Part shown: positions 4,437 through 56,898 of the stretch, piece after piece
Layout of the letters: every line of letters begins with the position of its first letter
Numbering within the stretch: position 1 is the stretch's first letter
Origin: an uncultured Gemmatimonadota bacterium
Lineage (GTDB): Bacteria > JAAXHH01
Assembly: GCA_951812955.1 (NCBI GenBank)
Contig: OX638340.1
Coordinates: forward strand, 1,024,001-1,088,000
Direction: 5' to 3'
Length of the DNA stretch: 64,000 nucleotides
Notes under the pieces: generated by a model
Databases searched by the model: none
What the model saw: only the letters and a program-made list of their open reading frames with translations
Told to the model about the DNA's origin: nothing
Position numbers and translations under genes: made by a program

Positions 4437-4449
4437 AGAAGGAACCCAC

Positions 4450-12779: not shown

Positions 12780-12885
12780 GCGGGTAATGCCGGCTGTCTT
12801 CTATACGTCCCATACCACATGGGTTCAGGAAATCAGTCTCCGCTATGAATTACACGGAGATTCTGACGAATCCGCCTTCGTGCAG

Positions 12886-13668
12886 CTAGAACCGATAGGC
12901 CGTCTCCAGCGGTTGCCCCTCCTCCAAGGCGCGTCGTGAAAAGTTCTCTTTTTCGCGCAACTCCCCGATCACGCGAATGACGTCCTCCAACGACTCACTG
13001 GGAAAGGCCATCACGCCGTTCACGTCCGCGGCGATAACGTCACCGGGGGCGACTTCGATTCCTCCGCAGACTATCGGCACGTTGGCGGCGACGGGGCGGA
13101 TCACCGAACCGGGACCATAGAGGCAGATTCCCCCCGCGTAAACAGGCAGGCCGATTTCCTCCATGCCCTCGATATCCCGGCAGCCGCCATCGGTCACCAG
13201 GCCCGCCATCCCCTTCTGACGACAGGCCAGCACGATCACGTCTCCGAACATGCTGAGCACCTCGCTGGTACCACTCGCCGTCACCCAGATCGATCCGGGC
13301 TCCGCTTCGTCCACCGGGCGAAAGACGAATGAACGAATGTCGTCCCGCGTGGTCGGGGTGTCGCTCTCCTCGTACTTCGTCGTCACGGCCGGCCCGGCGA
13401 TCGTACCCCTGGCGGGGATCATTGGTCGCACGCTTCGGGACATGGCCAGCCGCTCCCGGTCATGCCCCAGCCGGATCAACGCGTCCATGATCAGCGGCGT
13501 TGGTGCGTCTCTGAGCGCGCGGAAGGGATCACTGCTGGTACCGGTTTCCTGGTTCGTCTGAACCGCATGCGTTCTGGCGGGACTAGAGGCAAGGCTCGCG
13601 GCGGCCGTCGCGGCCATTCCGGATTTCAGGAACCCCCTGCGGGACAGGCTTCGATTGAATATCGTCAT
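12886..13668 (-). CDS. RraA/HMG-CoA-aldolase-like family protein with twin-arginine (Tat) signal peptide
   Basis: Start chosen at MTIFNRSLSRRGFLKSGMAATAAASLASS (SRRGFLK Tat motif); AGGAG RBS 8 nt upstream; RraA-like core (GDVIVLACRQKGMAGLVTDGGCRD). Confidence 0.7.
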   Translation of the reverse strand: MTIFNRSLSRRGFLKSGMAATAAASLASSPARTHAVQTNQETGTSSDPFRALRDAPTPLIMDALIRLGHDRERLAMSRSVRPMIPARGTIAGPAVTTKYEESDTPTTRDDIRSFVFRPVDEAEPGSIWVTASGTSEVLSMFGDVIVLACRQKGMAGLVTDGGCRDIEGMEEIGLPVYAGGICLYGPGSVIRPVAANVPIVCGGIEVAPGDVIAADVNGVMAFPSESLEDVIRVIGELREKENFSRRALEEGQPLETAYRF

Positions 13669-27465: not shown

Positions 27466-28845
27466 ATGGTTAATGGAACCATACCAAAACGTATAGCCAT
27501 TATCGGCGGTGGGATATCCGGGCTGGGCGCAGCGTGGGCGTTGAATCAACATCCAGACCGGTTCGATTTCCGTATTTACGAAGCCCGGGAGCAGGTGGGC
27601 GGAAACGCAATCACCGCCGACATGCCGCAGGATGACGGCGGTTCCATTCCCTTCGACATTTCCGTCACCGCACTGATCCCATCGGTCTATCACCACATCC
27701 TGTTGTTGATGCGGAAGTTCGGCATCGAACTGCTCGATACCCGGTTCAACTACAGCGTGAAATACCATGGGCAGGTATACGCCCACGATTTCGACTCCGC
27801 CATCAGAAGGCAGCTGCAACCGGAGATTGTCCGGTTTCAACGGCTCCTGAAGCGTCTTCACCGGCTCGGCTGGCTGACCCATTCCCGGTCGAGGCTCGTC
27901 AACGCGCTCAATCCCTTAAATTACGTCAGCATGGGGACCGTGCTCAACCTGGGCGGTTTTTCAGGGGACTTCAGGTTCAAGATCCTGAAGCCCATGTTCG
28001 TCAATTTCCTGATGGCGACGAACGTGTTCGATATGCCCGCGTCGCTTTTTGCGCGGTACCTGGAGTTCTTCGATATCGAATCTGCGACGCCCATGCAGAC
28101 GTGGGACCAGGGCACGCGTCGTATCTACGAGCACCTTTCAGCCGGTTTCCGGGACAGGATATACCTCGGCCGGCCCGTACGAAAAGTGTACCGACGGCCG
28201 AACTGTGTCGTGATCGAGGATCCGGACGGAGTAGAGGAGACGTTCGACGAGGTGATCTTCGCCTGCAACGCGAACCAGACGCTGATGCTGCTCGACCGGC
28301 CCACGTTTCTGGAGCGGTACATTCTGTCGTCGATCCGTTATGAAAGCGAACTCCACAACCACACGGTCGTGCATTCGGACGCCTCCGTCCTGCCGGAGAA
28401 CGAAGTGAAACCGCTGGAGACGCGGAGCAATCATATTGAACAGTACGGGGCCAGGCCGGACAACTATGAAATAACCTACATCATGCACAACCAGCAGCCA
28501 TGGGCCAACCGGTCCGACAAACCCTGCCTGGTGACCTATAACCCGGTCACGCCCATCGACGAACGGAAGATCGTCAAGAAGTGGTGGTTCCAGCACATCG
28601 TGCATGATGTGCGCCATGTCGCCTGGCTCATCCATCTGTTCCGTTTCATCCAGGGCAGACGGCGGACCTGGCACTGCGGTGCCCATACCCTGATGAACAG
28701 CCAGGAAACCTGCTTTGTAACGGGACTCGCCGCGGCCTCGCAGATCGGCGCTGAATATCCCTTCAAAGACCCCCTGGCCAGGCGCATGTTCAATTATTAC
28801 GGAAGAATTCTGCACGGCTGGCGTTTCCGGAAGGCGAGAGGTTGA
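27466..28845 (+). CDS. NAD(P)/FAD-dependent oxidoreductase (amine-oxidase-like; resembles the FAD proteins encoded next to cyclopropane-fatty-acid synthase genes)
   Basis: 459 aa; dinucleotide-binding RIAIIGGGISGLGAAW...YEAREQVGGN. Confidence 0.65.
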   Translation: MVNGTIPKRIAIIGGGISGLGAAWALNQHPDRFDFRIYEAREQVGGNAITADMPQDDGGSIPFDISVTALIPSVYHHILLLMRKFGIELLDTRFNYSVKYHGQVYAHDFDSAIRRQLQPEIVRFQRLLKRLHRLGWLTHSRSRLVNALNPLNYVSMGTVLNLGGFSGDFRFKILKPMFVNFLMATNVFDMPASLFARYLEFFDIESATPMQTWDQGTRRIYEHLSAGFRDRIYLGRPVRKVYRRPNCVVIEDPDGVEETFDEVIFACNANQTLMLLDRPTFLERYILSSIRYESELHNHTVVHSDASVLPENEVKPLETRSNHIEQYGARPDNYEITYIMHNQQPWANRSDKPCLVTYNPVTPIDERKIVKKWWFQHIVHDVRHVAWLIHLFRFIQGRRRTWHCGAHTLMNSQETCFVTGLAAASQIGAEYPFKDPLARRMFNYYGRILHGWRFRKARG

Positions 28846-29090
28846 AAACCGCACCGGGTGACAGGGCTTCTACTGTCCAGTCAACATGCACCGAACGACG
28901 GAAATCCCGCGCGTATCTGCGCCGCCGCATTCCCCGCTACACCTGTTCGGGCCAAATCCTGCTTGTCGCGTTAATGCCTTGTAGTTATCATACTTACAGT
29001 GTGGAACACTATAGCGTTTCTTGACCCCTGCGGCCCTTCGATACCCGGACGAATTCACCGGCGCCGAGGAGGATCACGGAAGGACTGGAT

Positions 29091-30167
29091 TTGCATACCT
29101 CCGAAACGATCGCAACCCCCATGGCCGACGCAGATACCGTACACCGTACCGGGCACGCTCCGGGTGGCCTACCCCCCTTCCCGGAAGGCTGGTACCTGGT
29201 AACCACGCGCGAAACCCTGTTGCGGGAAAAACTGATCGAGAAGATGTGGATGGGGGAGAACATCGTCGCATGGTGTGACGAGGAAGGCCGTATCTGCGTG
29301 GCCGACGCGGTTTGTCCGCACCTGGGTTCCGACCTGGGACCGCAGGTCGGCGGCAAGATTCACGGTGGCCGCCTGGTCTGTCCGTTCCACGGGTTCGAGT
29401 TCGATGCGACGGGTCAATGCGTCGCGACGCCCAACGCCCCGGCGCCGAAAGCCGCGAAACTGACCGTGTATGAAACCCGTGAGATCTCCGGCCTGGTCTT
29501 CGCGTGGTACGGAATCGACGGCCGTCCCGCGCACTGGCACCTGCCGGACGATCCTCCGACCGGTAACGAGTGGGGCGAACTGGGATTCAGAACCCTGCGT
29601 TTTCGCAGCCATCCACAGGAAACGGCGGAGAACTCCGTGGATATCGGACACCTGCGCTACGTACACGGCTATGACAATGTGGACCCGGTCGGCCCGGTGA
29701 CGGTGGACGGAGCCTACCTGAGGAGCTGTTTCAACTTCAAGCGCGTCCGCAGCATTATGGGCTTGAAGGACCTCACCTATGAAGTATCGGCCGTCGCCCA
29801 TATCCACGGTCTGGGATACTCCTATGTCGAAGTCCACGAAAAAACGATCGATATGCACTTGAGACTGTGGGTACTGCCCACGCCGATCGATGGCAGCCTG
29901 ATCGATCTCGTACTGGCGGGCCAATTGCAGGGAATCCGCAGACCCCGGCGTTTCATCTCGGGCCTGGGGTTCCTCCCCATGGCGTTGCGCAACCGCTTGA
30001 TGAAGCAAATCATGCTTTCACAGCAAAAACGGGACGTACTGCAGGACGTGGTGATCTGGGAACGAAAGCAGTTTCGCACGCCGCCCCGGCTGTGCAAGGC
30101 CGATGGGCCCATTGGCCTTTACCGGCGCTATTGCCTGCAGTTCTATCCTGAACAACCGAAAGCCTGA
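29091..30167 (+). CDS. Rieske [2Fe-2S] non-heme-iron oxygenase (KshA/Neverland/PaO-like)
   Basis: Rieske CPHLGSDL...CPFHGFEF and mononuclear iron motif ENSVDIGHLRYVH (Ex3Dx2Hx4H); alternative start MADAD at 29121. Confidence 0.8.
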   Translation: MHTSETIATPMADADTVHRTGHAPGGLPPFPEGWYLVTTRETLLREKLIEKMWMGENIVAWCDEEGRICVADAVCPHLGSDLGPQVGGKIHGGRLVCPFHGFEFDATGQCVATPNAPAPKAAKLTVYETREISGLVFAWYGIDGRPAHWHLPDDPPTGNEWGELGFRTLRFRSHPQETAENSVDIGHLRYVHGYDNVDPVGPVTVDGAYLRSCFNFKRVRSIMGLKDLTYEVSAVAHIHGLGYSYVEVHEKTIDMHLRLWVLPTPIDGSLIDLVLAGQLQGIRRPRRFISGLGFLPMALRNRLMKQIMLSQQKRDVLQDVVIWERKQFRTPPRLCKADGPIGLYRRYCLQFYPEQPKA

Positions 30168-30255: not shown

Positions 30256-31050
30256 CTATCCGCCGTCCTCCAGCTCAGCCAGAGTCTCCAGCACCCCCTG
30301 CTGGATGAACTCCTCGTAGGCGTCCCGTGTCGGTAGTTCGGCCGCCTTCGACAGCATTTTCGTGGCCCGCGCCCGGCCGTCCTCGCGATCAAGATATGGA
30401 AGCCTGAGCGCATATTCAAACAGCACGACCTTCGAGTCCGGAGCTAGCTCCAGAGCCCGCTCGTAATGGATGACGGCGTTTTTCCGATTCCCCTTGTACA
30501 AGAACCGTGCAACGCGCCCGGCACGTGCGATGTCGGCGTGCCAGCCCCCTAAGGCCATATGCGCCTCTGCGAAGTCGGGGGAGATGGTGAGCGCGGTCTC
30601 GAGCAAATCGCGTGCCCTGCCCGCCAGACCTCGGCGAAATGCAGTTAGTTTACCGATACTCTGTGCATATCGGCCAACAGCGTGCGCGGATTGGAAATAT
30701 GCTTCGGAATTGGTCGAATCGATGCGCACTGCTTCTTCCCCGTACTCTATCGCGCGTTCCAAAATACCGTTCCGGTCCTCCTCAGTCGCCACATGGTGGC
30801 CGTACACCGCGAGCGATTGCGCCGCAAGGGCGTAGCCTTCGGATGTACCGACGGCTGACGCGAGATCCGCCGCCTCGAGAAAACGGCCTTCCTCGAAATC
30901 GGTCCTTGCTTCATCGATCGACTGCGCGTTCGCGCCAGCCGGGTCGGCCAGGCTGGCCGCAATAATCACGAATCCCGCAACTGCCACGAAACGGACAACT
31001 GCCGCGAATCCCGCAACGACTGCGAAACGGTAAAACTGGGTAAGGGTCAT
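30256..31050 (-). CDS. membrane-anchored tetratricopeptide-like repeat protein
   Basis: 264 aa; N-terminal hydrophobic segment then Ala-rich helical repeats. Confidence 0.5.
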   Translation of the reverse strand: MTLTQFYRFAVVAGFAAVVRFVAVAGFVIIAASLADPAGANAQSIDEARTDFEEGRFLEAADLASAVGTSEGYALAAQSLAVYGHHVATEEDRNGILERAIEYGEEAVRIDSTNSEAYFQSAHAVGRYAQSIGKLTAFRRGLAGRARDLLETALTISPDFAEAHMALGGWHADIARAGRVARFLYKGNRKNAVIHYERALELAPDSKVVLFEYALRLPYLDREDGRARATKMLSKAAELPTRDAYEEFIQQGVLETLAELEDGG

Positions 31051-31208: not shown

Positions 31209-32252
31209 CTAAAGAGGTTTACGAGCCAGGAAACAGTACAGCGGCGTGAAGATACCCGACCTGCCGCCCTCGACATAAGCGTCAGCAGTTCGATCCAGGA
31301 GTCGGACCACTTCCGAATACCCCTTCGGAATCAGACTTAGCGCTTCGGCCATCTTCGATCCTGCGATCACGGCCTTGCGACCCCAAGGGAGCCTGTTCAG
31401 TGCGTTCCCCAAAGTCCCATGCCGACTCTCCATTGGCCGATACCAAGGCGTGGAGGGTTCATTCCGGACGTCTCGGTCCATCCCTTCGATGACGTGGAAT
31501 CCCGCCGCTTCAAGCCCGTGATTCACTTCCCTGAACGTCGCAATGTCGTTCAGCGCAATGCCGCGCATGAGGTCCTGCTCAATGGCCCGGTGCCGGTTGT
31601 CTTTCGGATCGAATTTCTCGGTCAGACACATTTCCTGACCCCAAAACAGGGCTCCTGGTTTGAGTACGCGGAAGATCTCCGCGAAAGCGCGTTCCTTGTC
31701 TGGCGCGTGGCACGTTGACTCGATGGCATAGGCTCGGTCAAACGTCTCGTCCTCAATGCCGCCCATATCCATGAAGCTACACGTCTCGTAATCGACCATG
31801 TGGCCGAGTCCCGCTTCAGCGTTCAACCGCTTTGCCTTATCCAATTGGAGTTCGTTGATGTTGATTCCGACAACCCGGACGCCGGCCTCCCGGACGACGC
31901 GACGCATCGGACCGCCGATTCCACAACCAACGTCGGCCACCGTCATACCCTGCTCCAACTCCAGCTTCGAGATCATCAACCGCTGATGCCGGATTATGGA
32001 TTCCTCCAGGCTTTCATCGGGCTTTAGTGGCGCGAAGTGGAGGGATTCGCTCCAACCCCACACCATTAACCCGCTGCAAAGATCATAGTACTCTTTCACT
32101 GTTTCTGTGTGGTCGTACTCATACGCGCCATCGGCCCCCGGGACCGCCCGGGCTGCCCGGGCGGTCCAGCCTTCAAGGCGCTGCGCGCGACTCTTGACGT
32201 CCGATCCCCGGCTCGCATCTTTCAGTTCTCTGGATAGTTTGCCCATCGCCAT
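31209..32252 (-). CDS. sterol 24-C-methyltransferase-like (SMT/ERG6 family) SAM-dependent methyltransferase
   Basis: 347 aa; SMT signature blocks MVWGWSESLHF (cf. YEYGWGSSFHF), VADVGCGIGGP, YAIESTCHAP (cf. YAIEATCHAP), C-terminal FTPLYCFLARKP (cf. FTPMMLFVARKP). Confidence 0.8.
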   Translation of the reverse strand: MAMGKLSRELKDASRGSDVKSRAQRLEGWTARAARAVPGADGAYEYDHTETVKEYYDLCSGLMVWGWSESLHFAPLKPDESLEESIIRHQRLMISKLELEQGMTVADVGCGIGGPMRRVVREAGVRVVGININELQLDKAKRLNAEAGLGHMVDYETCSFMDMGGIEDETFDRAYAIESTCHAPDKERAFAEIFRVLKPGALFWGQEMCLTEKFDPKDNRHRAIEQDLMRGIALNDIATFREVNHGLEAAGFHVIEGMDRDVRNEPSTPWYRPMESRHGTLGNALNRLPWGRKAVIAGSKMAEALSLIPKGYSEVVRLLDRTADAYVEGGRSGIFTPLYCFLARKPL

Positions 32253-32288: not shown

Positions 32289-34319
32289 TCAGACTTGCAG
32301 TTCGTGTCTTTGCTCGGAGATGACGAACTGCAGCTTCTTGGTCGGTTTCATAGACGGAAACGGATTGAACCGCAGCTTATAGTTTGCAGGCGACACATCG
32401 ATCTTGAAGTAGTGCGCCAGCATCAGCACGTTGACAGCCAATTGCAGTTCCATCCAACGGGTGCCGAGACACATGTGCGTGCCCAGCCCGTACGGAGCGT
32501 ACCCGGGGCTGCGATGCTCATTGCGCGACGGCAAGTAGCGGTCGATGTCGAAGGAGTGCGGGTCGGGGAAGATGTCACTCATGTAATGCGAGGCGGTCGG
32601 CGCGATGTGGATCCGTTCCCTCATGGGCAGTTCGTATCCCTCAAACACACACGTATTCATCACGTGTCGAACAGACATGGGAACGATCGGGTACATGCGC
32701 ATACACTCCATGAGGAAGCGGTGCGTGACGTCAATCGCGGATGGAGTGAAGGCCTCGATGTCCGGAACGCCGTTCCCGAATACGTCATCGGCTTCATTTC
32801 GGATTTTCTCGTAGAGTGCAGGCTGCGACGCCATGGCATAGACTACCAGACTGAACGTGTCACCAAGGTACACGCTGGCGATCAACGCCGCAGAAAAGGC
32901 AAACCGCAGGTTGGCCTCCGGGAGGAATTGCGGGTCGCTCGCGTGCAGGCTAAGGTAATCGTCCACCAGGTCCCGCGGTTTTCCGGCCCGTTGGGCGGGG
33001 GTGTGGCCCTCCTCGACTCTTTTCATCAGTGTATCAAGGGATTTCGCCCGGCGTTTCATGCCCGGGGTGTTCAGCGTGAACTCGGGCAGCATCCTGGCGA
33101 TATGCACGCTGAGCGCCCGTTCCTTGTACTGCATCAGATCGTCCATCAGGTCCTGCGTGTCGATGCCGATAAACAGGGGCGAGAGTTGGGCGTTTATCAT
33201 CTGCCGGCACATGGACGTAGCAGAATAGGAATCGCCGACATTCAAGCTTGCCATGTATTTCCAGGCATGATGGTAGAGCTTGTCCAGCTGCCCCGCAAGT
33301 CTCCCGCGTGAATACGCTGGAGACAAAGACTTGCGCAGGCGGAAATGGTCGGCGCCGTCCAGGGAAGGCAAGAGGCCGGAAGCGCCGTAGACTTTCTCGA
33401 AGTCTCTGAAATAGTCCTTGGCACTCAGGTACATGCGCCCGTGCTTATGCACCCAGCGGTTTGCCTCGGGTCCGACCAGGAAGACCATGGGCCGGGTGAA
33501 AGGAGGGCGGATCTCAAACACCGGACCGTAGTCCTGCGCAAGGTCCGCAAAGAGCGCGTGGAGGTTGCCGTCTCGAACATGCGGTTGCATCATCAGCTTG
33601 CGTAACGGTACCCTCGGAATCTTCTTTGTAAAACCGGGACGTCGAAGCGTCGGGCCGGCGAGTTTGTGGGAGACTGCTTCGGCGATGGACCGGCCGATCA
33701 CGTCCATCTTGCAGATCAACTCGATGCGTTGCTCCGTCTCGTCATCGAGTTGGAACATGAATCGAAACACATCGCACGTATTGACGAGGCAAATTACGAT
33801 AACGTCTCTCGGGTCGGGGATCTCGTTCATGAAGATCGCCCGGCTGATCCGCGTTCTGATGAACTGACTTGCAGTACTCGAATCGACATCGTTGTTCAAT
33901 TCCATCTTCCAGTCAGTACGGGCCAGCGTCCAGAACTCGCCATCGTGGTGTTCCAGGATCTTCATTTCTACCAGGCGATCCAGAACCGAATCTATAATGG
34001 TCTCCGCTCGGGGGGCCAGCCGTTCGATCCAGTACTGTGTATTGTGCTGATTTGGCTCATTTACGATTTCTTCCAGAATGAAATCGATGGTGGAATTGCC
34101 CGTTGGTGTCTGGTCGAGGACGAACAGAGACCCCGGGTCCGTGTCGATGCGAGATCTGATTGAAAGCTCCGCAAGTGCGGCACCGATTACGGCGCAGTTC
34201 AAATCCCAGCCAGGCACCTGGTGGAAGTAGCCAGTCTCCTCATTGAGGAGCATCAGGATGAGTTCCTGGGTCAAAGTAAGTGATTGGGGCTTCACGTCCT
34301 TTGCAGTATCAGCCATTAG
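32289..34319 (-). CDS. cytochrome P450 with N-terminal GPP34/GOLPH3-like domain
   Basis: Start MADTAKD (4-bp overlap with RND stop); N-terminal ~230 aa LTLTQELILMLLNEETG... resembles GPP34; C-terminal P450 with EXXR (ECMRMYP) and heme loop YGLGTHMCLGTRW. Confidence 0.75.
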   Translation of the reverse strand, partial: LMADTAKDVKPQSLTLTQELILMLLNEETGYFHQVPGWDLNCAVIGAALAELSIRSRIDTDPGSLFVLDQTPTGNSTIDFILEEIVNEPNQHNTQYWIERLAPRAETIIDSVLDRLVEMKILEHHDGEFWTLARTDWKMELNNDVDSSTASQFIRTRISRAIFMNEIPDPRDVIVICLVNTCDVFRFMFQLDDETEQRIELICKMDVIGRSIAEAVSHKLAGPTLRRPGFTKKIPRVPLRKLMMQPHVRDGNLHALFADLAQDYGPVFEIRPPFTRPMVFLVGPEANRWVHKHGRMYLSAKDYFRDFEKVYGASGLLPSLDGADHFRLRKSLSPAYSRGRLAGQLDKLYHHAWKYMASLNVGDSYSATSMCRQMINAQLSPLFIGIDTQDLMDDLMQYKERALSVHIARMLPEFTLNTPGMKRRAKSLDTLMKRVEEGHTPAQRAGKPRDLVDDYLSLHASDPQFLPEANLRFAFSAALIASVYLGDTFSLVVYAMASQPALYEKIRNEADDVFGNGVPDIEAFTPSAIDVTHRFLMECMRMYPIVPMSVRHVMNTCVFEGYELPMRERIHIAPTASHYMSDIFPDPHSFDIDRYLPSRNEHRSPGYAPYGLGTHMCLGTRWMELQLAVNVLMLAHYFKIDVSPANYKLRFNPFPSMKPTKKLQFVISEQRHELQV

Positions 34320-37300
34320 TGGCCTCCCTTCATCAGACGCAGATGAATGGTAGAAAGAGCGGGAACGACCATCATGAGTATGGCCGTGACGACGAGGATA
34401 CCGCAACCAAGCGATGCGGCAAAGGGAACCAGGAACTGAGCATGAATAGCGCGTTCCAGAATCAAGGGGGTGAAGCCGAGAAACGTAGTCAGAGAAGTAA
34501 GCATAATCGGACGAAAACGTCCCTTTGCGCCCTCTATGATCGCAGTTCGCGCCGGAGCGCCTTCCCTGAGTTTCTGATCGATGAAAACGATCATGACCAG
34601 TGAATCGTTCACAACCACGCCGCTCAGGCCGAATATACCCATGAAGGAGATTGCGCTCAGGGCTACTCCAAGGGCCCAGTGACCAAGGATCACTCCGATG
34701 AACCCGAACGGGATCACCGCCATGATGATGAACGGTTTGGTATAGGATCGTAAGGGGATGGCGAGCAGCACGAAGATCATGATCAGAGCGATCGCAAATC
34801 CGCGATACAGTGCATCCAGGGAATCGAGTTGTTGTTGTTGCTCACCTCCGAACGTGTAGGTCAGGTCCGGGTACACGGCGGTCAATTCCGCGAGGATTGA
34901 ATCCGCCAGGATGCTATTGGCCTGGTCACCGGAGATCACCGCGGCATCCACGTCCGCAGTGACCGTGACGACACGCTGACCATCCTTCCGCCGAATGGCC
35001 GGCGGCGACACGCCCGTGTTCAGCGCGGCCACACTGACGATCGGGACCTCGGCACCGGCCGGCGTACGGATCAGGTACCTTTCGATATCGGTGATGGAAC
35101 TTCGTTCATCGGCGGGCAGGCGCACGTAGACCCGAACCTCTTCACGGCCGCGCTGCACCCGGACGGCATCCGCACCGAAAAACGCGGCGCGCGTCTGTCC
35201 GGCCAACGCTTCCAGCGTGAGACCCAAAGTCCGCGCTTCCGGCCGGAGTTCAAGCTGTATTTCCGGGATACCCGGGGTGTGATCCGAACGGACATCGTAG
35301 ACGCCTGTCACTCCACGGAGACCATCGACCACCGAGTCCGCAATCCGGGCGAGTCGCACCGGATCCGGATGCGACAGCACGGCCTCGACCGGGTTGCCCA
35401 GGTCGAAGACCTCTCCGCTGAAGGTGACACCGCGCACGTAGGGCAGCACACCCACTTCCTCTCGCCATGCCTGCACAACCTCTCCGGTAGTGATCTGCCT
35501 TTGCTCCGCGCTCAGGAGTTTGAACTCGATGGTTGCAATGTTGGCCTGAGGATTAAGGGTGGGGGCTGGATTAAGCCCACCCTCGAGCCTCGAGCCCTGT
35601 CCGACGGTCACCATTACGCCGGTCAGCAGTGGTGGCGCATCCTCGGGGCGGCCGCGCGAAAGCCGATCGACGACCCGGTAACCTGCGGCCTCCAGTTCCT
35701 GTGCCACCTCGTATGTCCTTGGAGCGGTCGTCCCGTCGGGCATCTCCAGGATGACCGTCGCAAAATCCCCCTCCACGTCAGCAGCCAACGTGGTAGGTAC
35801 GATCCCCGCCGGTACCAGCGAGATACTAAGTACGAGTATTCCAACGGCCCCCCCCAGCGTGACCGCGGGCTGATCCGTCGCGAACCGTAACGCTCGGTCC
35901 AGGGGACCCTGCACGAACCGGTTCAGCGACTCGTTCACACGTCCCTGGATCCGCGCGAAGAACCGGTCGAAAGCACTTGTCGGCGTCCATTCCGGACCGT
36001 GCAAACGGGACAGGTGGTTGGGTAGTACCAGCAGTGATTCGATCAGGGAAACAAACAGTATGGCGATAAGGATGATCGGCAGTGCCCGCCATACGTCACC
36101 GACGCCTCCGGGTATGAACAGCAGCGGGACGAAAGCCACCACCGAAGTAAGGACCGCGAAGGTCAACGGCACTTTTATCCGTCGTACTCCGCGTATCGCA
36201 GCCACGACACCGGGCGTTCCCCGACTGCGTTCATATTGAATGTGCTCGGCTACGACGATGGCGTCATCGACGACAATCCCTATGGCGAGGACGAAAGAGA
36301 ACAGGCTGATGGTGTTAATAGCTACGTCGAGTACCATCATGACGGCCAATGTGCCTATACCCGAAACGGCGAGGCCGACGGCGACCCACAATGCAAGCCG
36401 GATTTCCAGAAACAGGCTGAGTGCGATCAACACCAGCAACAGACCCAGGATGCCATTCTTGACGAGAATATCGGCACGTTCCTCATAGGCTTGGGATTCG
36501 TCATTCCACATGGTGATGTGCACACCGTTCGGCAGAGCCGGGATCACCTCGTTTGCCATATGTTCCCGGACAGTCGTGGCGACGTCCATCACTTGTTCGC
36601 CGTTGGCTCGGTACACCTCGACGAATACAGCGGGATGGTTCTGATGCCGAACAATCAGGTCGGATTCCTGAAAACCATCGCGAACCCTGGCGATATCGCC
36701 AAGGCGCAAGGCAGTGCCGTCACTTCTGCTAAGCAGGATGATCTCTTCGAAATCCTGCTGGTCGTAGTTCTGGCCGAGGGTACGAACCCGCACCTGGGAT
36801 TCCCGGGTATCGATACTGCCGGCAGAAAGGTTCAGGGAACTGCGACGAATGGTATTGGCGACATCGGCGAGTGTCAGTCCAAGGGCTCTCAGCCGATGAA
36901 GCGGCACCTCGATGGAGATCTCGTATTTCCGAACACCACTGACCTCGACCTGGGACACGGACGGAAGCGCCGTGAGTCCATCCTCGATCTGATATGCCGT
37001 TTCCTTCAGCGAGCGTTCGGACACGTCGCCGTAGACGATGAACCGTATCATGCTCATACGGTTGTCCATCTCACGGAAACTGGGACGATCGGCACCGGCC
37101 GGGAAAGACTGGATGCGATTGACCGCGGACTCGATATCGTTGAGCGCCTGGACCATGTCCGTACCGAAATCCATTTGAATCCGCACGGATGCTATACCCG
37201 GGGCCGCTACAGACTTGACCGCCTTCACGTCATCCAACCCGCTGACCTGGTCCTCGATCTTGACGACGATCGACTCCTCGACCTCCTCCGGCGTGGCGCC

Positions 37301-37489
37301 GGGATAGGCCATCGACACTTCGATATGGTAGAAGGGAGTAGTGGGCCACGCTTCCCGATCGATGCCGGACAGCGAAATCAGCCCTGCGGCGACGATGGCC
37401 ATCATCAACAGATTGGCGGCCACGCTGTTGCCCGTCATGTAAGCGATCGGACCGGAAGGTTCGTTATGATTTCCGTTGTCCATACTCAT
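34316..37489 (-). CDS. RND-family efflux transporter permease (AcrB/HpnN-like, HAE)
   Basis: 1057 aa; 12-TM RND topology with two large periplasmic loops; ATGA overlap with upstream MFP gene. Confidence 0.85.
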   Translation of the reverse strand: MSMDNGNHNEPSGPIAYMTGNSVAANLLMMAIVAAGLISLSGIDREAWPTTPFYHIEVSMAYPGATPEEVEESIVVKIEDQVSGLDDVKAVKSVAAPGIASVRIQMDFGTDMVQALNDIESAVNRIQSFPAGADRPSFREMDNRMSMIRFIVYGDVSERSLKETAYQIEDGLTALPSVSQVEVSGVRKYEISIEVPLHRLRALGLTLADVANTIRRSSLNLSAGSIDTRESQVRVRTLGQNYDQQDFEEIILLSRSDGTALRLGDIARVRDGFQESDLIVRHQNHPAVFVEVYRANGEQVMDVATTVREHMANEVIPALPNGVHITMWNDESQAYEERADILVKNGILGLLLVLIALSLFLEIRLALWVAVGLAVSGIGTLAVMMVLDVAINTISLFSFVLAIGIVVDDAIVVAEHIQYERSRGTPGVVAAIRGVRRIKVPLTFAVLTSVVAFVPLLFIPGGVGDVWRALPIILIAILFVSLIESLLVLPNHLSRLHGPEWTPTSAFDRFFARIQGRVNESLNRFVQGPLDRALRFATDQPAVTLGGAVGILVLSISLVPAGIVPTTLAADVEGDFATVILEMPDGTTAPRTYEVAQELEAAGYRVVDRLSRGRPEDAPPLLTGVMVTVGQGSRLEGGLNPAPTLNPQANIATIEFKLLSAEQRQITTGEVVQAWREEVGVLPYVRGVTFSGEVFDLGNPVEAVLSHPDPVRLARIADSVVDGLRGVTGVYDVRSDHTPGIPEIQLELRPEARTLGLTLEALAGQTRAAFFGADAVRVQRGREEVRVYVRLPADERSSITDIERYLIRTPAGAEVPIVSVAALNTGVSPPAIRRKDGQRVVTVTADVDAAVISGDQANSILADSILAELTAVYPDLTYTFGGEQQQQLDSLDALYRGFAIALIMIFVLLAIPLRSYTKPFIIMAVIPFGFIGVILGHWALGVALSAISFMGIFGLSGVVVNDSLVMIVFIDQKLREGAPARTAIIEGAKGRFRPIMLTSLTTFLGFTPLILERAIHAQFLVPFAASLGCGILVVTAILMMVVPALSTIHLRLMKGGH

Positions 37490-38703
37490 GGGGTCTGGCC
37501 GACTTCCGTCTGGACGCGCATGCCTTCGGTGGTGAACCGGATCCCGCCGGTGACAACGGCCTGACCGCTTTCGAGGTCACCCGTCACATAGGCTACGTCG
37601 CCGGTTCGTTGCAGTACCTGTACCGGAACGATATGCACCACGCCGCCGTCCCGCACGATCCAGACCTCGTTGCCGGACTGCAGCGCCGCTCGCGGAACCA
37701 GGAAGTAATCATCCCGTTCAAGGCCGTCTATTTTCACTTCGACGTATTTGCCTACCAGCAGGGGAGGACTACTGCCGCCGATAGGAATCGTGCCGTCCGT
37801 GGGGCGTCCCGCTCGAAACGGATCCGGTACGCGCACAATGATGTCGATGGTACGCGTTTGCCGGTCAAGGGACGTCTCGCCGCGGTCCACATAACCTCTC
37901 CAGGCATAGGATCCTTCACCGAATCGGGCGACGACCTGCGCAGCGACTCTCCGGTTCCCGTCACCCGCCGAAAGCGACCACAACCCCGGAATCAGCGCTG
38001 CATCGGAATCGGACAGAGGCACCACGATTTCCACCGCATCTGAGGCGAAAACCCTCGCGACGGATTGACCGGCGGCGACGATCCGCCCCACGTCCACGGT
38101 TTCTTCCTGCACGTATCCGTCGAATGGCGCCGTAACTTCGGTTCTCCCCAGGGCGAGATTGGCGTCGGCAAGCCTGGCTTCGTCGCGATCCAGTGCGGCC
38201 TGGGCCGCTTTCAGTTGCGGTTCTCTAAGGGCAAGCGGGTTCGCGCCGTTTGGCGATGATACGTCCTCCTGACGGGAGGAATAAAGCGCGTGCTGCGCGC
38301 GGGCAATCGAAGCCCGTTCCTGCTCTTTGAGGAACGCCACCCGGCTGGCGGCGACGTTGGCCTCCGCTTCACGCACCCGGTGCCGGTAATCGATGTCTTC
38401 CAGCCGGAATAGCGTTTGGCCTGCGGTTATCCGTCCACCGCTCTGGAATCCCTGTTCAACCCAGACGACTTTGCCGCCGACCTGAGGAACGATATCTACT
38501 TCCGCGTCTGGCCGGACGGTACCGGATCCAAATACCGGTACGGGGCCAGACCCGGTGGCGACCGGGCCGGTCTGCACGAACGGAGTCTGGGGAGGCTGTT
38601 CCGTACGTGTCGGTTCGGGGGCCAGTGAAATCAACAGGGCGGCCAATGCCACGGAGACTCCGAGAACGCCTACTGTGACTAGAAGACTGGTAAGACGGGA
38701 CAT
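37486..38703 (-). CDS. RND efflux periplasmic adaptor (membrane fusion protein)
   Basis: 405 aa; N-terminal TM anchor, coiled-coil/lipoyl/beta-barrel MFP pattern. Confidence 0.8.
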   Translation of the reverse strand: MSRLTSLLVTVGVLGVSVALAALLISLAPEPTRTEQPPQTPFVQTGPVATGSGPVPVFGSGTVRPDAEVDIVPQVGGKVVWVEQGFQSGGRITAGQTLFRLEDIDYRHRVREAEANVAASRVAFLKEQERASIARAQHALYSSRQEDVSSPNGANPLALREPQLKAAQAALDRDEARLADANLALGRTEVTAPFDGYVQEETVDVGRIVAAGQSVARVFASDAVEIVVPLSDSDAALIPGLWSLSAGDGNRRVAAQVVARFGEGSYAWRGYVDRGETSLDRQTRTIDIIVRVPDPFRAGRPTDGTIPIGGSSPPLLVGKYVEVKIDGLERDDYFLVPRAALQSGNEVWIVRDGGVVHIVPVQVLQRTGDVAYVTGDLESGQAVVTGGIRFTTEGMRVQTEVGQTP

Positions 38704-38709
38704 GCGAAT

Positions 38710-40230
38710 TCACTCCGTTGGAAGGCGAGAGGAAGAGCGCCGACCTTGCTGATGCTGAAGGAGGCCCTCCCGGTCGGCTGCGGTCCAGGTACCGCCCAGC
38801 GCGCGATGGAGTGCCAGACGTGCGTAGCCCAGATCGCGCAATGCTGCCGAGTGTATCGATTGCGTGGCCAACCGGGACTGTTCAGCTGCCAGGAACGCTT
38901 CGTATTCCCCCACACCATACAGGTATTTTCGCTCCAGTAACGCGGATTGAGCCCGAGTTTCTTCGGTGAGGGAAACCAGCAGCGCGTGGCGCCTGCGGCT
39001 GGCTTCCAATGCCGTCAGGGCAATTTCAACCTCGTTAACCGCGGTTACCACGGCACGGCCGTATGCGGCCGCGGCCTCGTTCAACCTGGCCTCTGCCAGC
39101 GCGATGTTGCTTCGAATCCGGGAGCCCTGGAAAACGGGACCGAGCAGATTCGCAGTGAGGTTTCGGAACCATTGATCCGGATCGAACCATTCGCTTGAAT
39201 CCGTGCTCTGAAGTCCGATCGCGCCCTGCAGAGACAGCCTCGGAAGCAGGTCCGCCCGTCGCGCGCCCACCGAGAACCGTGCCGCCTCCACGCGCTGCAT
39301 GGCCGCAAGGACGTCGGGACGTTGGACCATGAGATCGGCAGGAATGCCGGCGGGAACGGGATCGAGTACGGGAGATGGAGCGGGCGCATCGGAGAGCAAG
39401 TGCGCCAGGTCGGCCCGGAAGCCACCCATGAGTATCCACAGCCGACCCTCGGCGTCCGCCCGCAGGGCTTCGATCCGCGGCAATTCCGCCTGGGCCTCAC
39501 GCAGACTTCGACGGGCGGCGTGCAGGCCGACCAGGTCGGCTAACCCGCTTTCATACCGGGACCCGGCCAGTGATTCCTGTTGTTCCAGGATCGCCACGAT
39601 TTCAAAGGCGAACCGCTGCTGCTGGCGCAGATTCACGATTTCCAGGTAGGTCCGTACGGTCTCCGCCAGCACGCCCAGGTTTGCACTCAGATAGTCCGCC
39701 TCCGTAGCCACCAACTCGGCAGCCGCGGCGCGCGTGTCGTTGCGGTTGCGGCCCCAGAAATCCAGCTCGTAGGCGAATTCAACGCTCAGGGCATAGGTCG
39801 TCAGTCCGAGCCTGTCCGGGATATCCACTCCGGCCGCGCCGAGTACGTCAGGATCCAGACCGACCTCTTCCAGTTGCGCTCCTATGCCGGCATTCGTCGG
39901 ACCGTCGGATTCGCTCACGTTCACCGTCGGCCGCAGCAACGGAAACACCGCCGACCCGGCTATGCCTTTCCGCATCCTGGCCTGATGAACTCTGGCGACC
40001 GCTCCGGCCAGGTCGAAATTAGAAGAAAGCACTTCTTCGATTACCCGGTCGAGGACCGGATCTTCGAATGACTTCCACCACTCCAGGGGTCGGTATACGC
40101 CGGAATCCTCGCTGGCAGTAAATGCGCCGGGTGTTTCCGGCACCGATTCGAGCACCGGTAGATTCCGGTTCGGAGCAAGGGAACATGCCGAGAGGAAAAG
40201 GAAAGCAAACAACGGTATTAATCGTCCCAT
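38710..40230 (-). CDS. outer-membrane efflux protein (TolC/NodT-family lipoprotein)
   Basis: 506 aa; lipobox LFLSACS; duplicated OEP repeats. Confidence 0.8.
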   Translation of the reverse strand: MGRLIPLFAFLFLSACSLAPNRNLPVLESVPETPGAFTASEDSGVYRPLEWWKSFEDPVLDRVIEEVLSSNFDLAGAVARVHQARMRKGIAGSAVFPLLRPTVNVSESDGPTNAGIGAQLEEVGLDPDVLGAAGVDIPDRLGLTTYALSVEFAYELDFWGRNRNDTRAAAAELVATEADYLSANLGVLAETVRTYLEIVNLRQQQRFAFEIVAILEQQESLAGSRYESGLADLVGLHAARRSLREAQAELPRIEALRADAEGRLWILMGGFRADLAHLLSDAPAPSPVLDPVPAGIPADLMVQRPDVLAAMQRVEAARFSVGARRADLLPRLSLQGAIGLQSTDSSEWFDPDQWFRNLTANLLGPVFQGSRIRSNIALAEARLNEAAAAYGRAVVTAVNEVEIALTALEASRRRHALLVSLTEETRAQSALLERKYLYGVGEYEAFLAAEQSRLATQSIHSAALRDLGYARLALHRALGGTWTAADREGLLQHQQGRRSSSRLPTE

Positions 40231-51146: not shown

Positions 51147-53255
51147 ATGCCAGTCAATAGCGAGCCATCCTTCAACGAAGCACTGGCACGTGTCCTCCGG
51201 TCGAAGAATCCTCGCTGGCGGGACACGCTTGCCGCAGAACAACACCAAACGCTAAAGGGTGGCGGTAGACCTGACGTAATACTGCGGAATCCGCGCGGTT
51301 CGGTGGTTGTCGTCGAGACCGAGTACGTTCCAGCCCGTACGGTTGAGACGGAAGCCAATGATCGCATCGGTCGAGAACTCAGTGATTCAGGCGTGGCTAT
51401 TGAGCAGTGTGTCGCCGTCCGAGTACCTGATTACTTAAAAACGGTCCCTCAGCACGATCTCGACACCCGTACGGCGGTGGCGACCTACGAATTCTGCCTC
51501 TTCAGCGAAACGGACAATGCCGAGGATCCTTTGCGCTGGCCTGCGGATGGTTGGATCACAGGCGCGATCAACGATCTCGCGCTCCTGATCGAAACCGCGT
51601 CGATTTCAGAACGGATCGTCGCCCAAAGCCTGGACATTCTGGAAGATGGGATAAGCGAAACTGCCGTCCAGTTGCGCGAAGCCACTAAGGACAGACCAAA
51701 CGTAAGTTCCCGCATTGCGAAAACGCTCCTGCAAGAAGACGGCGTGCAGACTTCCCGAATGGCTATGGCCATCATCGCAAATGCGCTCACTTTTCAGAGC
51801 ATGCTCGCCGGGGTCTTTCACGTAAAGACGATCGACGATCTACGCCGGAACGGAGTCATCCCAAAGTCGGCGGTCCTGCGAGAATGGAAGCGCATCCTTC
51901 GAATAAACTACTGGCCCATATTCCACATTGCGAGCGAGGTCCTCAGTCCGATTCCGGATGGCATCTCCGCTCGTTTGCTGGAAAAGTTGTCGAATGTGTC
52001 GAGCGAGTTAGAAGCACACGGCATCACCCAGTCACACGACATCTATGGGCGAATGTTCCAGCGGATGATCAGCGACAGGAAGTTCCTCGCGACGTTTTAC
52101 ACCTTGCCCACGTCGGCGACGTTGCTCGCGGAGTTGGCAGTTGAGATGATAGACGTTGAGTGGAGCGATCCTGATGAGGTGACGAAGCTTCGCACCGCAG
52201 ACTTTGCATGCGGTACGGGTACGTTGATCACGGCGCTCTATCAGGCAATGCTGGGTCGCCATCGACGTGCTGGCGGCAACGATGAGGCGATTCACAAGAG
52301 CATGATGGAGACTTCTATCTTCGCGGCCGATATCATGCCGGCGGCTACCCATCTGACCACTTCGATGTTGTCCAGTACCCATCCAACAACCCCTTTCGAG
52401 CAGACCCGTGTCCATCTCTTGCCCTACGGCCAGCAGGAGGACGACGTAGGGGCCATTACCTTCGCGCTGGGCGCGCTTGACCTGATACGAGCGCAGCACG
52501 GTACCGGACTATTCGAGAACACGGGGATCATGGTACAAAGCGGTACAGAAAGCACGCAGGACGTCATTAGAGAAGCAGGTAGATTGACGGACACATTCCT
52601 GCTTCAGCACCACTCGATGGACGTGGTTATCATGAATCCGCCCTTTACTCGCCCGACCAACCACGAAGCGACCGATGTCCCTGTACCTTCTTTTGCCGGC
52701 ATGGGAAATAATGAGGCAGAGCAGGCAGCCATGTCCCAACTTCTGAGAGATATCCGGAGGGAAATTGACGATCCCGCCGGTCACGGAAACGCCGGACTCG
52801 CGTCCAATTTCCTTGACCTCGCTGACGCCAAGATCCGTCCCGGCGGCTTGCTTGCGCTCGTGATGCCACTCAGCCTTCTTCAAGGCAACGCGTGGAAGGC
52901 AAGCCGCGACCTACTGCAGGCAAAGTATGAGAGCGCAGTGGTCGTCAGCCTAGCATCCGTAGTTCGAGACAGTGCGGTATCATTCTCGGCCGATACCGGA
53001 ATGGGAGAGGTGTTGTTGATCGCACGACGCAGAACCGTACCAGACAGTCCAGAGCACACGAAAACTGAAGAGACAGTCGATACGGTTACCTATTCGCGCT
53101 GCGAAAGCCGCCGGCATCGGGAACCGAGGCAACAGGGATCGCATCGGCGATTCGTGACGCGATCCAGCAGGGCACCTCGCGAATCGCCATTGGAAACGCC
53201 CGTTACGGTATTCTCACACGAGGTACCTGGGACGAGGGCCACTGCGCGTCAGTGA
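51147..53255 (+). CDS. Type IIG-like restriction-modification enzyme, N-terminal nuclease-like region + N6-adenine methyltransferase domain (apparently frameshifted; continues in 53252-54103)
   Basis: Motif I DFACGTGT, motif IV MNPPF (MmeI-like NPPF); last ~55 aa are Arg-rich wrong-frame read-through; the -1 frame from ~53069 reads as good protein into the next ORF. Confidence 0.6.
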   Translation: MPVNSEPSFNEALARVLRSKNPRWRDTLAAEQHQTLKGGGRPDVILRNPRGSVVVVETEYVPARTVETEANDRIGRELSDSGVAIEQCVAVRVPDYLKTVPQHDLDTRTAVATYEFCLFSETDNAEDPLRWPADGWITGAINDLALLIETASISERIVAQSLDILEDGISETAVQLREATKDRPNVSSRIAKTLLQEDGVQTSRMAMAIIANALTFQSMLAGVFHVKTIDDLRRNGVIPKSAVLREWKRILRINYWPIFHIASEVLSPIPDGISARLLEKLSNVSSELEAHGITQSHDIYGRMFQRMISDRKFLATFYTLPTSATLLAELAVEMIDVEWSDPDEVTKLRTADFACGTGTLITALYQAMLGRHRRAGGNDEAIHKSMMETSIFAADIMPAATHLTTSMLSSTHPTTPFEQTRVHLLPYGQQEDDVGAITFALGALDLIRAQHGTGLFENTGIMVQSGTESTQDVIREAGRLTDTFLLQHHSMDVVIMNPPFTRPTNHEATDVPVPSFAGMGNNEAEQAAMSQLLRDIRREIDDPAGHGNAGLASNFLDLADAKIRPGGLLALVMPLSLLQGNAWKASRDLLQAKYESAVVVSLASVVRDSAVSFSADTGMGEVLLIARRRTVPDSPEHTKTEETVDTVTYSRCESRRHREPRQQGSHRRFVTRSSRAPRESPLETPVTVFSHEVPGTRATARQ

Positions 53256-54103
53256 TAAATGCTGAACTCGTAGATACCGTGAGAAACCTGCAAGATAGCA
53301 AACTGAAATTGCCTCGAATGGCTCAAGCGTATTCGGTTCCAACAACGATGCTGGGCGAGTTGGGAAAACGGGGCTTGGTTCACCGAGATATCAATGGGAT
53401 TGAAAGAAAATCCGTTCAAGATCAACAGGAATCAAAACGGTATTTTCGCGGTCCGTTCGATATCGTACATACGACAGACGAACCGACCTTTCCGGTTCTC
53501 TGGGGACATGCCACTGACCGCGAACGTTGCATCGTGGTTCAGCCTGACAGTGCAGGAATAATTCGCGAAGACTGTGAAGACGGCGCGCACGATGCCTGGA
53601 GAACGGCGACCAGGCTCCACTTCAGTCTCGACTTTCGCCTCAACTCACAATGCCTCGCCGCGTGCCTTACTCCAACCGAAACACTGGGAGGAAGAGCATG
53701 GCCCAATTTCCAGATGGACAGCCGTAGGAATGAGACTGTTACCGCGCTGTGGGCTAACACAACGCTGGGACTGATACTGTTCTGGTGGGCAGGTACCGTT
53801 CAGCAAGCAGGACGAGCCAACCTTACCATCAGCAGGTTGCCCGAACTGCTCACGCTGGATGCGCGTACGCTGACAGACGCGCAGCACAAGCAGGTAGATC
53901 TGATCTTCAAAGAGTTTGAGAAACGCCCACTGTTGCCAGGAAACGAGGCGTATCGGGACGCGAGCCGACAGGCGCTGGATGAGGCCGTGCTCATTGGCCT
54001 CATTGGACTGCCTGAATCAATTCTCGATCCTCTCGCGGTGCTTCGCCGGCAGTGGTGCAGTGAGCCGACCGTGCATGGTGGGAAAAGTACGCGACCCAAT
54101 TGA
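53252..54103 (+). CDS. C-terminal (target-recognition-like) part of the frameshifted methyltransferase gene
   Basis: 283-aa ORF beginning with GTG; same frame is open upstream to 53069 (RDSRYGYLFALRKPPASGTEATGIASAIRD...). Confidence 0.5.
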   Translation: MINAELVDTVRNLQDSKLKLPRMAQAYSVPTTMLGELGKRGLVHRDINGIERKSVQDQQESKRYFRGPFDIVHTTDEPTFPVLWGHATDRERCIVVQPDSAGIIREDCEDGAHDAWRTATRLHFSLDFRLNSQCLAACLTPTETLGGRAWPNFQMDSRRNETVTALWANTTLGLILFWWAGTVQQAGRANLTISRLPELLTLDARTLTDAQHKQVDLIFKEFEKRPLLPGNEAYRDASRQALDEAVLIGLIGLPESILDPLAVLRRQWCSEPTVHGGKSTRPN

Positions 54104-54167
54104 ATAGTTTTACGATAGTACTCAAACCCCAAAATGCAGTTGGCTTCCATATAGCACCGCATTCTAA

Positions 54168-56870: not shown

Positions 56871-56898
56871 TTCATTCAGTTTCAGATACCTTTGATTC

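Follow-up and report, generated by a model that had tools for sequence, protein, structure and literature searches.

The question raised by this locus is what a GPP34/GOLPH3-like domain is doing at the N-terminus of a bacterial cytochrome P450. The gene concerned lies on the minus strand of a 64,000-nucleotide stretch from an uncultured Gemmatimonadota bacterium (contig OX638340.1, positions 1,024,001 to 1,088,000; referred to here as the window), where it is set between genes for an envelope efflux pump and a sterol C-24 methyltransferase (SMT) homologue. In our judgment the chances are evenly balanced that its product is a sterol-tailoring P450 belonging to a horizontally spread module for methylation, oxidation and transport, and that its GPP34 domain acts as a dock that does not use phosphatidylinositol 4-phosphate (PI4P); we infer both the substrate and the reaction from sequence.

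The GPP34-P450 gene was confirmed to be a real, conserved fusion and not an annotation artefact. A single uninterrupted open reading frame (ORF) is open from 32289 to 34406 on the minus strand, and according to the ORF list and translation its coding sequence occupies 32289..34316, giving 675 amino acids (aa) plus a stop codon at 32289-32291. The best-supported start is the ATG at 34316-34314, which has a GGAGG ahead of it and overlaps the TAA stop codon of the preceding resistance-nodulation-division (RND) pump gene (34318-34316) by one base, forming TAATG (junction sequence GGAGGCCACTAATGGCT). An in-frame TTG at 34406 was also considered as a start and rejected, given that it falls within the RND gene and that homologues, nearly all of 673-677 aa, disagree with it. 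Both domains were matched far above their Pfam cut-offs: GPP34 (PF05719; E 1.7e-28, 100.5 bits against a cut-off of 29.1) over aa 15-215, spanning positions 1-198 of the 201 in the profile, and p450 (PF00067; E 5.5e-37, 128 bits against a cut-off of 22.8). In window coordinates, the GPP34 domain is encoded at 33672..34274 and the P450 domain (aa 235-675) at 32292..33614, with the codon for the haem-ligand Cys616 at 32469-32471. Full-length two-domain homologues abound, with more than 120 clusters (at 90% identity) of proteins at least 70% identical to the window protein; an exhaustive scan of 1.84 billion representative sequences adds dozens of complete fusions, 24-39% identical, that constitute paralogous subfamilies; the two domains are therefore not separate genes joined by a misplaced start. 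The first-pass annotation of this stretch had thus been right in reading an N-terminal GPP34/GOLPH3-like domain and a complete P450 in one gene, and in describing translational coupling to the RND pump and an adjoining SMT, which lies 36 nt downstream. Its lower boundary of 32289 also stands; the upper boundary of 34319 is 3 nt too far.

Although the N-terminal domain shares its fold with a eukaryotic PI4P effector, the features that bind the lipid are not retained. Compared with the PDB by phmmer, the full-length protein matched P450s only, and GOLPH3 emerged only when a profile of its N-terminal part was used. This profile, made from 26 diverse sequences of the domain, matched GOLPH3 (3KN1; E 2.5e-14) and Vps74 (E 1.4e-12), with no other significant match. 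Full-length structure prediction gave the GPP34 domain a predicted local distance difference test score (pLDDT) of ~85-90 and placed predicted strands at residues 121-124 and 128-131, which would be the position equivalent to the GOLPH3 beta3/beta4 hairpin. The first structure model, computed from 60 homologues at least 70% identical, was unusable for the P450 domain (pLDDT 61); adding paralogues of 32-34% identity to the alignment raised this value to 83.7. The PI4P pocket of GOLPH3 is formed by W81, R90, R171 and R174, and the protein loses both binding and function in the double mutants W81A/R90A and R171A/R174A (Wood et al. 2009, PMC2806290). When GOLPH3 was aligned to the bacterial-domain profile, R90 fell on I44, R171 on E105 and R174 on I108, with no gaps around the anchors G91/G45, E96-L97/E50-L51 and L181/L115. 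W81 corresponds to P35 of the fusion, and a Trp (W37) follows two positions on. In 120 of 120 close homologues, R90 is replaced by V, I, A or T, R171 by E or D and R174 by I or V, none of them basic. The 10-residue insertion of GOLPH3 (residues 160-169) is also missing from the fusion's domain. As judged from this alignment, the PI4P pocket is lost in this orthologue group. A phosphoinositide-binding role, which the first-pass annotation had entertained, is not supported in view of these substitutions and of the net charge of the domain, which is -18 (median -16 over 54 homologues) versus +2 for the GOLPH3 core. This acidity argues against electrostatic binding of anionic membranes, and better fits docking to basic cytoplasmic segments of membrane proteins or the binding of a substrate.

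The position of the GPP34 domain relative to the enzyme is also informative. It is followed by a basic stretch (net charge +7 for aa 219-245) and by a linker of low model confidence (aa 219-232, 33621..33662, within LAGPTLRRPGFTKKIPRVPL; pLDDT below 50 for aa 219-228). This linker ends at the conserved I233-P234, which opens the proline- and glycine-rich hinge of the P450; P234 is invariant across paralogues, and a conserved I-P…G…P…G-N…Y-G-P-V-F stretch follows the linker. Microsomal P450s begin with an N-terminal membrane anchor that is followed by a proline-rich hinge, to which the proline- and glycine-rich stretch of the fusion presumably corresponds. On inspection of the fusion's N-terminal sequence, neither a signal peptide nor a transmembrane anchor is visible, and the sole strongly hydrophobic 19-mer lies within a predicted helix (aa 169-180) of the GPP34 domain. 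By analogy, we infer that GPP34 takes the place of the microsomal membrane anchor and may dock the enzyme to a membrane-embedded partner or substrate, not to a phosphoinositide. Rare fusions of GPP34 with Rieske proteins and with ABC ATPases are known (Ferreira et al. 2025, PMC11706023), and these fit a general docking module for oxygenases and transporters.

At the level of its residues, the P450 domain carries every catalytic motif. The haem loop reads Y609-GLGTHMC616LG, in which C616, G610 and H614 are invariant across paralogues; the K-helix EXXR is E537-C-M-R540, of which E537 and R540 are likewise invariant, and the I-helix acid-alcohol pair is present (G485-D486-T487). Its nearest relatives by sequence are found in the CYP725/85 clan, CYP51, CYP120 and CYP46 (E ~1e-16, ~20% identity). 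In Foldseek comparisons, the closest matches among solved structures are P450s of lipids, sterols and terpenoids (CYP46A1, CYP184A1, CYP51, CYP120A1 and CYP90B1), with a spread of scores too small for a reaction to be assigned and no single P450 family standing out. CYP51 was considered as an identity and rejected, as the protein is 15-20% identical to solved CYP51s, lacks the I-helix GQHTS, and is 29% identical over the C-terminal 150 aa to a CYP51 encoded near one of its own orthologues (locus L039, below). By these comparisons the fusion P450 is an enzyme separate from the CYP51 of the sterol pathway and falls in no solved P450 family. Library scans matched no flavodoxin, FAD-binding or ferredoxin domain in the fusion protein. 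Because the fused domain is without flavin or iron-sulphur motifs, electrons must come from separate proteins.

Comparison with other genomes was used to ask which genes accompany the fusion. We collected 77 loci encoding orthologues of 55-94% identity from about eight phyla or classes (Gemmatimonadota, Latescibacterota, Chloroflexota, Acidimicrobiia, Nitrospirota, Rhodothermales, Alphaproteobacteria and Gammaproteobacteria), and their flanks were compared within 10 kb by tblastn and by clustering of all ORFs. All neighbour counts are lower bounds, with 14 of the 77 loci ending early at contig edges. An SMT was found in 51 of the 77 loci, a Rieske oxygenase resembling 3-ketosteroid 9alpha-hydroxylase (KshA) in 60 and an FAD-dependent oxidoreductase in 29; at least one of these three was present in 71. 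Transporters of the RND superfamily were present in 65 loci, either as an AcrB-type pump (29 loci) or as an MMPL-family transporter (36 loci). The SMT is directly adjacent to the fusion in ~40 loci, and in three arrangements: in Gemmatimonadota and Latescibacterota it follows downstream in the same direction, in Chloroflexota it is convergent, and in two loci (L024 and L060) it lies upstream. These three arrangements point to selection on the linkage rather than to inherited synteny alone. The AcrB-type pump stands beside the fusion in Gemmatimonadota, Latescibacterota, Rhodothermales and unclassified metagenome-assembled genomes (MAGs); in Chloroflexota, Acidimicrobiia and Proteobacteria, an MMPL-family transporter stands there instead. 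We read this as a swap of one lipid-capable class of RND transporter for another. The MMPL representative from Dehalococcoidia (L054, 17938-20424) also matches the Sterol-sensing and Patched sterol-sensing domain (SSD) models, and that of a gammaproteobacterium (L053, 1797-4112) does not. Some Dehalococcoidia loci additionally encode a major facilitator superfamily transporter and a protein weakly resembling LppX_LprAFG lipoproteins. Across phyla the FAD enzyme is 74-96% identical and the fusion 55-94%, which fits the horizontal spread of sterol genes and clusters described for sponge symbionts (Kelly et al. 2022, PMC9531527).

In three of these loci the fusion gene neighbours a sterol-synthesis cluster. 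A motif scan of all locus ORFs detected the DCTAE motif of oxidosqualene cyclase in L039, L042 (Nitrospira) and L059 (Arenicellales), in each case within a squalene-epoxidase/oxidosqualene-cyclase single-gene fusion of 1135-1163 aa situated 2.4-6 kb from the GPP34-P450 orthologue (epoxidase/cyclase regions at L039 14439-21510, L042 14613-19447 and L059 17842-21333). In all three the FAD oxidoreductase, like the orthologue, is 2.4-6 kb from that gene. The plus strand of L039 carries the GPP34-P450 gene (10001-12031), the FAD enzyme (12142-13521) and then a short unknown ORF; its minus strand carries, in order, the squalene-epoxidase/oxidosqualene-cyclase gene, CYP51, ERG4/ERG24 and a Rieske/VanA_C gene. 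The P450 of this minus-strand group is a genuine CYP51 (E 5e-103 to that of Methylococcus capsulatus), and the ERG24 of L039 was confirmed as well; in L042 the cyclase gene is succeeded by a P450-like ORF. The best 120 database matches are all related cyclase fusions with identities of 71% or more, and among those 120 at least four contigs, as judged by identical length, carry both the GPP34-P450 and the cyclase families. The fusion homologues on these four contigs all belong to the tier of ~62-72% identity, and one of the contigs is the Nitrospirales contig of L042. Clusters of this type have been reported from sponge metagenomes and a Nitrospira MAG, and sterol methylation in vitro was demonstrated for some of their SMTs (Brown et al. 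2023, PMC10070321). In M. capsulatus, the sterol C-4 demethylation genes sdmAB share an operon with an MMPL-type sterol transporter, BstA (PMC10942540). The fusion is thus linked to sterol enzymes, namely SMT, oxidosqualene cyclase, CYP51 and ERG24. The earlier suggestion that the P450 oxidises the same lipid as the SMT is strengthened by the recurrence of SMT, KshA-like Rieske oxygenase and RND-superfamily transporter in several phyla, and by the three loci beside an oxidosqualene-cyclase/CYP51/ERG24 cluster.

The architecture itself has been published, although it has not been characterised biochemically. Ferreira et al. (Microbiome 2025, PMC11706023) described GPP34_L, consisting of GPP34 plus cytochrome P450, as a monophyletic group. 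Its 656 members span 14 of the 20 bacterial phyla in that study and occur in, for instance, 92.6% of symbiotic Gemmatimonadota genomes, only in sponge symbionts and in none of the free-living relatives examined. The first-pass remark that no characterised GPP34-P450 fusion was known therefore holds for the biochemistry and fails for the architecture. On sequence comparison, the window protein belongs to this group. Its closest homologues occur in MAGs from Aplysina, Ircinia, Rhopaloeides, Petrosia-type and Porites hosts and in many long-read MAG chromosomes, with identities that reach 93-94%, and the nearest relatives, 81-94% identical, include those of APA_bin_41 (Aplysina, 94%), SB0665_bin_8, other SB06xx bins, IRC1_bin_16, RHO bins and Porites Plut_88884. 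Close orthologues are also carried by the chromosomes OY762445.1 (93%) and OZ247580.1 (85%), and an exact-sequence look-up of the window protein matched no record. The same paper proposed secretion of the GPP34 proteins, which would then bind PI4P of the host and keep phagosomes from maturing; flanking genes were examined for the short GPP34 form only, and the words sterol, methyltransferase, efflux and RND are absent from it. No paper linking GPP34 with sterols in symbionts was found in the literature collection searched. The sterol-gene context of the fusion appears to be unreported, and it contradicts the only hypothesis published for this form of the protein.

Within the window, the fusion is the fourth gene of a putative minus-strand operon. 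The operon opens with a TolC-like outer-membrane efflux protein (38710..40230; Pfam OEP, E 3.3e-37), and continues with an HlyD-type membrane-fusion adaptor (37486..38703; Pfam HlyD_3), which overlaps the next gene by 4 nt, and with the AcrB-type RND inner-membrane pump (34316..37489; Pfam ACR_tran, E 1.4e-159). After the fusion comes the SMT homologue (31209..32252; Sterol_MT_C, E 2.6e-15, with Methyltransf_11 and CMAS), which displays the region I motif WGWSESLHF and the S-adenosylmethionine-binding motif VADVGCGIGGP. The successive junctions of these five genes measure 6, -4, -1 and 36 nt. No terminator was predicted between the fusion gene and the SMT, in a promoter and terminator scan that stayed at background level. 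Convergent with the operon, on the plus strand, are a gene for a KshA-like Rieske non-haem-iron oxygenase (29091..30167, start codon uncertain; Pfam Rieske and KshA_C) and one for an FAD-dependent oxidoreductase of the amine-oxidase fold (27466..28845; Pfam Amino_oxidase). The Rieske protein matches KshA in the PDB with E 1.2e-22; SdmA was rejected as its identity, with a score of 31.8 bits against an equivalog cut-off of 600. Among solved structures, the FAD enzyme is closest to LkcE (E 6e-26), followed by 2b9w (E 2e-10); the latter entry bears the name 'putative aminooxidase' and is what we take to be the fatty-acid double-bond isomerase of Propionibacterium acnes. In a fully syntenic relative at 93% identity (L002, OY762445.1), the FAD-oxidoreductase and Rieske pair of window 27466-30167 is absent, indicating that the two genes were gained or lost as a unit between close relatives. 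Lying 158 nt beyond the SMT is a gene for a tetratricopeptide-repeat (TPR) protein with a signal-like hydrophobic N-terminus (30256..31050, minus strand; Pfam TPR), which may be the last of the operon. Its conservation is limited to the closest lineage. A TPR-like substructure occurs in BstC, a sterol carrier of Methylococcus (PMC10942540), and by analogy the TPR protein could be a periplasmic lipid-handling partner.

Taken together, these data are consistent with a cytoplasmic monooxygenase acting in a mobile module of sponge- and coral-associated bacteria that would tailor sterol-like lipids and move them through the envelope. The P450 would hydroxylate or desaturate a sterol or triterpenoid, either bacterially made or host-derived. 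Because the most constant neighbour of the fusion is a C-24 sterol methyltransferase, the sterol side chain is the likeliest target. The P450 may work alongside the KshA-like Rieske oxygenase and the FAD oxidoreductase, while its GPP34 domain would dock it to a membrane transporter or enzyme or to the substrate. The product would be handled by the RND-superfamily transporter, of AcrB type in Gemmatimonadota, Latescibacterota and Rhodothermales and of MMPL/sterol-sensing type in Chloroflexota, Acidimicrobiia and Proteobacteria, which may move it as BstA is thought to do in Methylococcus (PMC10942540).

Several observations weigh against this proposal. The docking role of GPP34 draws only on charge, position and analogy, and both the sterol substrate and the regiochemistry are conjectural. 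Pumps of the AcrB type, moreover, usually export drugs. The 64-kb window has no oxidosqualene cyclase, and CYP51 and ERG24 were likewise not found in it; the other 74 loci have no oxidosqualene cyclase within 10 kb, and 60 of the 63 loci of at least 20 kb are without one. No ferredoxin or reductase gene is present in the window cluster, and a crude motif scan found no ferredoxin-like ORF near the gene in any locus. Much of the gene linkage could also reflect recent transfer of the block. Finally, paralogous fusions have other neighbours, such as Acyl_transf_3, and the fusion family as a whole is thus not tied to SMT; it probably covers several lipid-directed reactions. One such paralogue, P0271 (32% identical; L079 6147-8135), shares the Gemmatimonadetes contig VXML01000014.1 (L078/L079) with the L063 orthologue, and is followed by a 275-aa protein with no Pfam match and then by a membrane Acyl_transf_3 enzyme.

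Three other explanations were weighed against the same evidence. The published one holds that GPP34 proteins, including the GPP34-P450 form, are secreted effectors that bind PI4P on host phagosomes and block their maturation, allowing the symbionts to persist (Ferreira et al. 2025). It accounts for the restriction of the fusion to sponge and coral symbionts and its absence from free-living relatives, and in our set all 77 loci come from MAGs, of which those with host-revealing isolate names derive from sponges or Porites. The domain is moreover homologous to a eukaryotic PI4P effector. However, the pocket residues that GOLPH3 and Vps74 require are P, I, E and I here, the latter three positions being non-basic in every close homologue, and the domain is strongly acidic where the GOLPH3 core is slightly basic. 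Neither a signal peptide nor a transmembrane anchor is visible, although effectors of type III, IV and VI secretion need no Sec signal, so that secretion could escape notice in the sequence. In addition, a P450 depends on haem and on electrons supplied in the cytoplasm, translation of the gene is coupled to that of an envelope pump, lipid enzymes surround it, and the source paper looked at the neighbours of the short form only and makes no mention of sterols. We consider an effector role for the fusion highly improbable.

A detoxification unit, in which the P450, perhaps with the Rieske oxygenase, oxidises toxic lipophilic metabolites of the sponge or its microbes for expulsion by the RND pump, with the methyltransferase as an accessory, would explain the tight coupling to a tripartite AcrB-type pump and the symbiont-specific distribution; sponge tissue is also rich in bioactive lipophilic compounds. 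Yet the methyltransferase has the SMT-specific C-terminal domain and region I motif, the pump is replaced by lipid transporters of MMPL/sterol-sensing type in Chloroflexota, Acidimicrobiia and Proteobacteria, and in three loci the gene adjoins clusters of oxidosqualene cyclase, CYP51 and ERG24, all of which make detoxification unlikely in our view. A catabolic role, in which degradation of host sterols for carbon would begin as it does through side-chain oxidation by CYP125/CYP142 and KshA ring opening in actinobacteria, seems more doubtful still. The Rieske protein does carry a KshA_C domain, with KshA enzymes as its best solved relatives, the module includes both a P450 and a flavoprotein, and several Acidimicrobiales loci have a nearby ORF that resembles acyl-CoA dehydrogenase by eye. 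Library scans of the 64-kb window, however, revealed none of KstD, KshB, Mce4 or the genes for side-chain beta-oxidation, and the flavoprotein is LkcE-like.

The sterol-tailoring proposal can be extended, more tentatively, beyond this locus. It is possible, though we would not expect it on present evidence, that the GPP34-P450s of most sponge-symbiont genomes are not effectors and form the oxygenase arm of a mobile module for sterol methylation, oxidation and export, by which many phyla would make or remodel sterols with unusual side chains, GPP34 being an adaptor that works without PI4P and tethers a soluble enzyme to transporters or enzymes of the membrane. If true, this would suggest enzyme scaffolding, not phosphoinositide sensing, as the more ancient role of the GOLPH3 fold. 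The 'sponge biomarker' case for the earliest animals is built on sponge sterols whose side chains carry additional carbons (24-isopropyl, 26-methyl). Synthesis of such side chains in vitro has been shown for symbiont SMTs (Brown et al. 2023, PMC10070321), and if the P450, Rieske oxygenase, flavoenzyme and transporter that travel with these SMTs across phyla do act on sterols, they would constitute an unexplored part of bacterial sterol chemistry in the holobiont. Work on GPP34, now presented as a phagocytosis-evasion factor, would be redirected, with a concrete set of genes to co-express.

Elsewhere in the window, four consecutive plus-strand ORFs (702, 283, 900 and 333 aa) at 51147-57900 have no Pfam match, and the GC fraction drops to 0.45 at 54-56 kb versus ~0.60 elsewhere. 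The first of the four (702 aa) has only weak PADLOC matches, to DNA methyltransferases. This region could be a foreign restriction or defence island. The window also encodes three PhyH-family dioxygenases (regions listed as 3570-5283, 62370-63218 and, for several genes, 15486-45461), and the same listed regions hold repeated GFO_IDH_MocA oxidoreductases, mandelate-racemase/enolase-type genes, a hydantoinase A/B pair and a GH32 hydrolase.

How the fusion relates to known systems can be summarised by its parts. As in P450 BM3, CYP116B and the CYP51-ferredoxin of M. capsulatus, a bacterial P450 shares one polypeptide with a second domain; unlike in those proteins, the extra domain is N-terminal and has a GOLPH3-like adaptor fold. 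In common with the microsomal-type sterol and lipid P450s CYP51, CYP46A1, CYP90B1, CYP120A1 and CYP184A1, it has a proline- and glycine-rich hinge and 'YGPVF' right after the N-terminal module, but it differs from them in having GPP34 instead of a transmembrane anchor and in its identity of 15-20%, far under the 40% family rule. The setting of the gene recalls the sdmAB-bstABC operon of M. capsulatus (PMC10942540), where sterol-modifying oxygenases are likewise encoded with an RND-superfamily (MMPL) transporter near sterol synthesis genes. That operon is itself without P450 or GPP34, whereas in the window the Rieske protein is KshA-like and not SdmA, the pump is of the tripartite AcrB type, and no BstB or BstC homologues were identified. 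With GOLPH3 and Vps74, the eukaryotic Golgi PI4P effector and adaptor of the COPI vesicle coat (PDB 3KN1, 2ZIH), the fusion shares a homologous helical domain of ~200 residues, with predicted strands where the beta-hairpin would lie; unlike them, its domain is without the three pocket arginines and the insertion, acidic, bacterial, cytoplasmic and fused to an enzyme. With GPP34_L it shares both architecture (N-terminal GPP34, C-terminal P450) and host range, and nothing structural differs between them; what differs is the reading of function, which here takes into account the absent pocket and the SMT, Rieske, FAD and RND neighbours.

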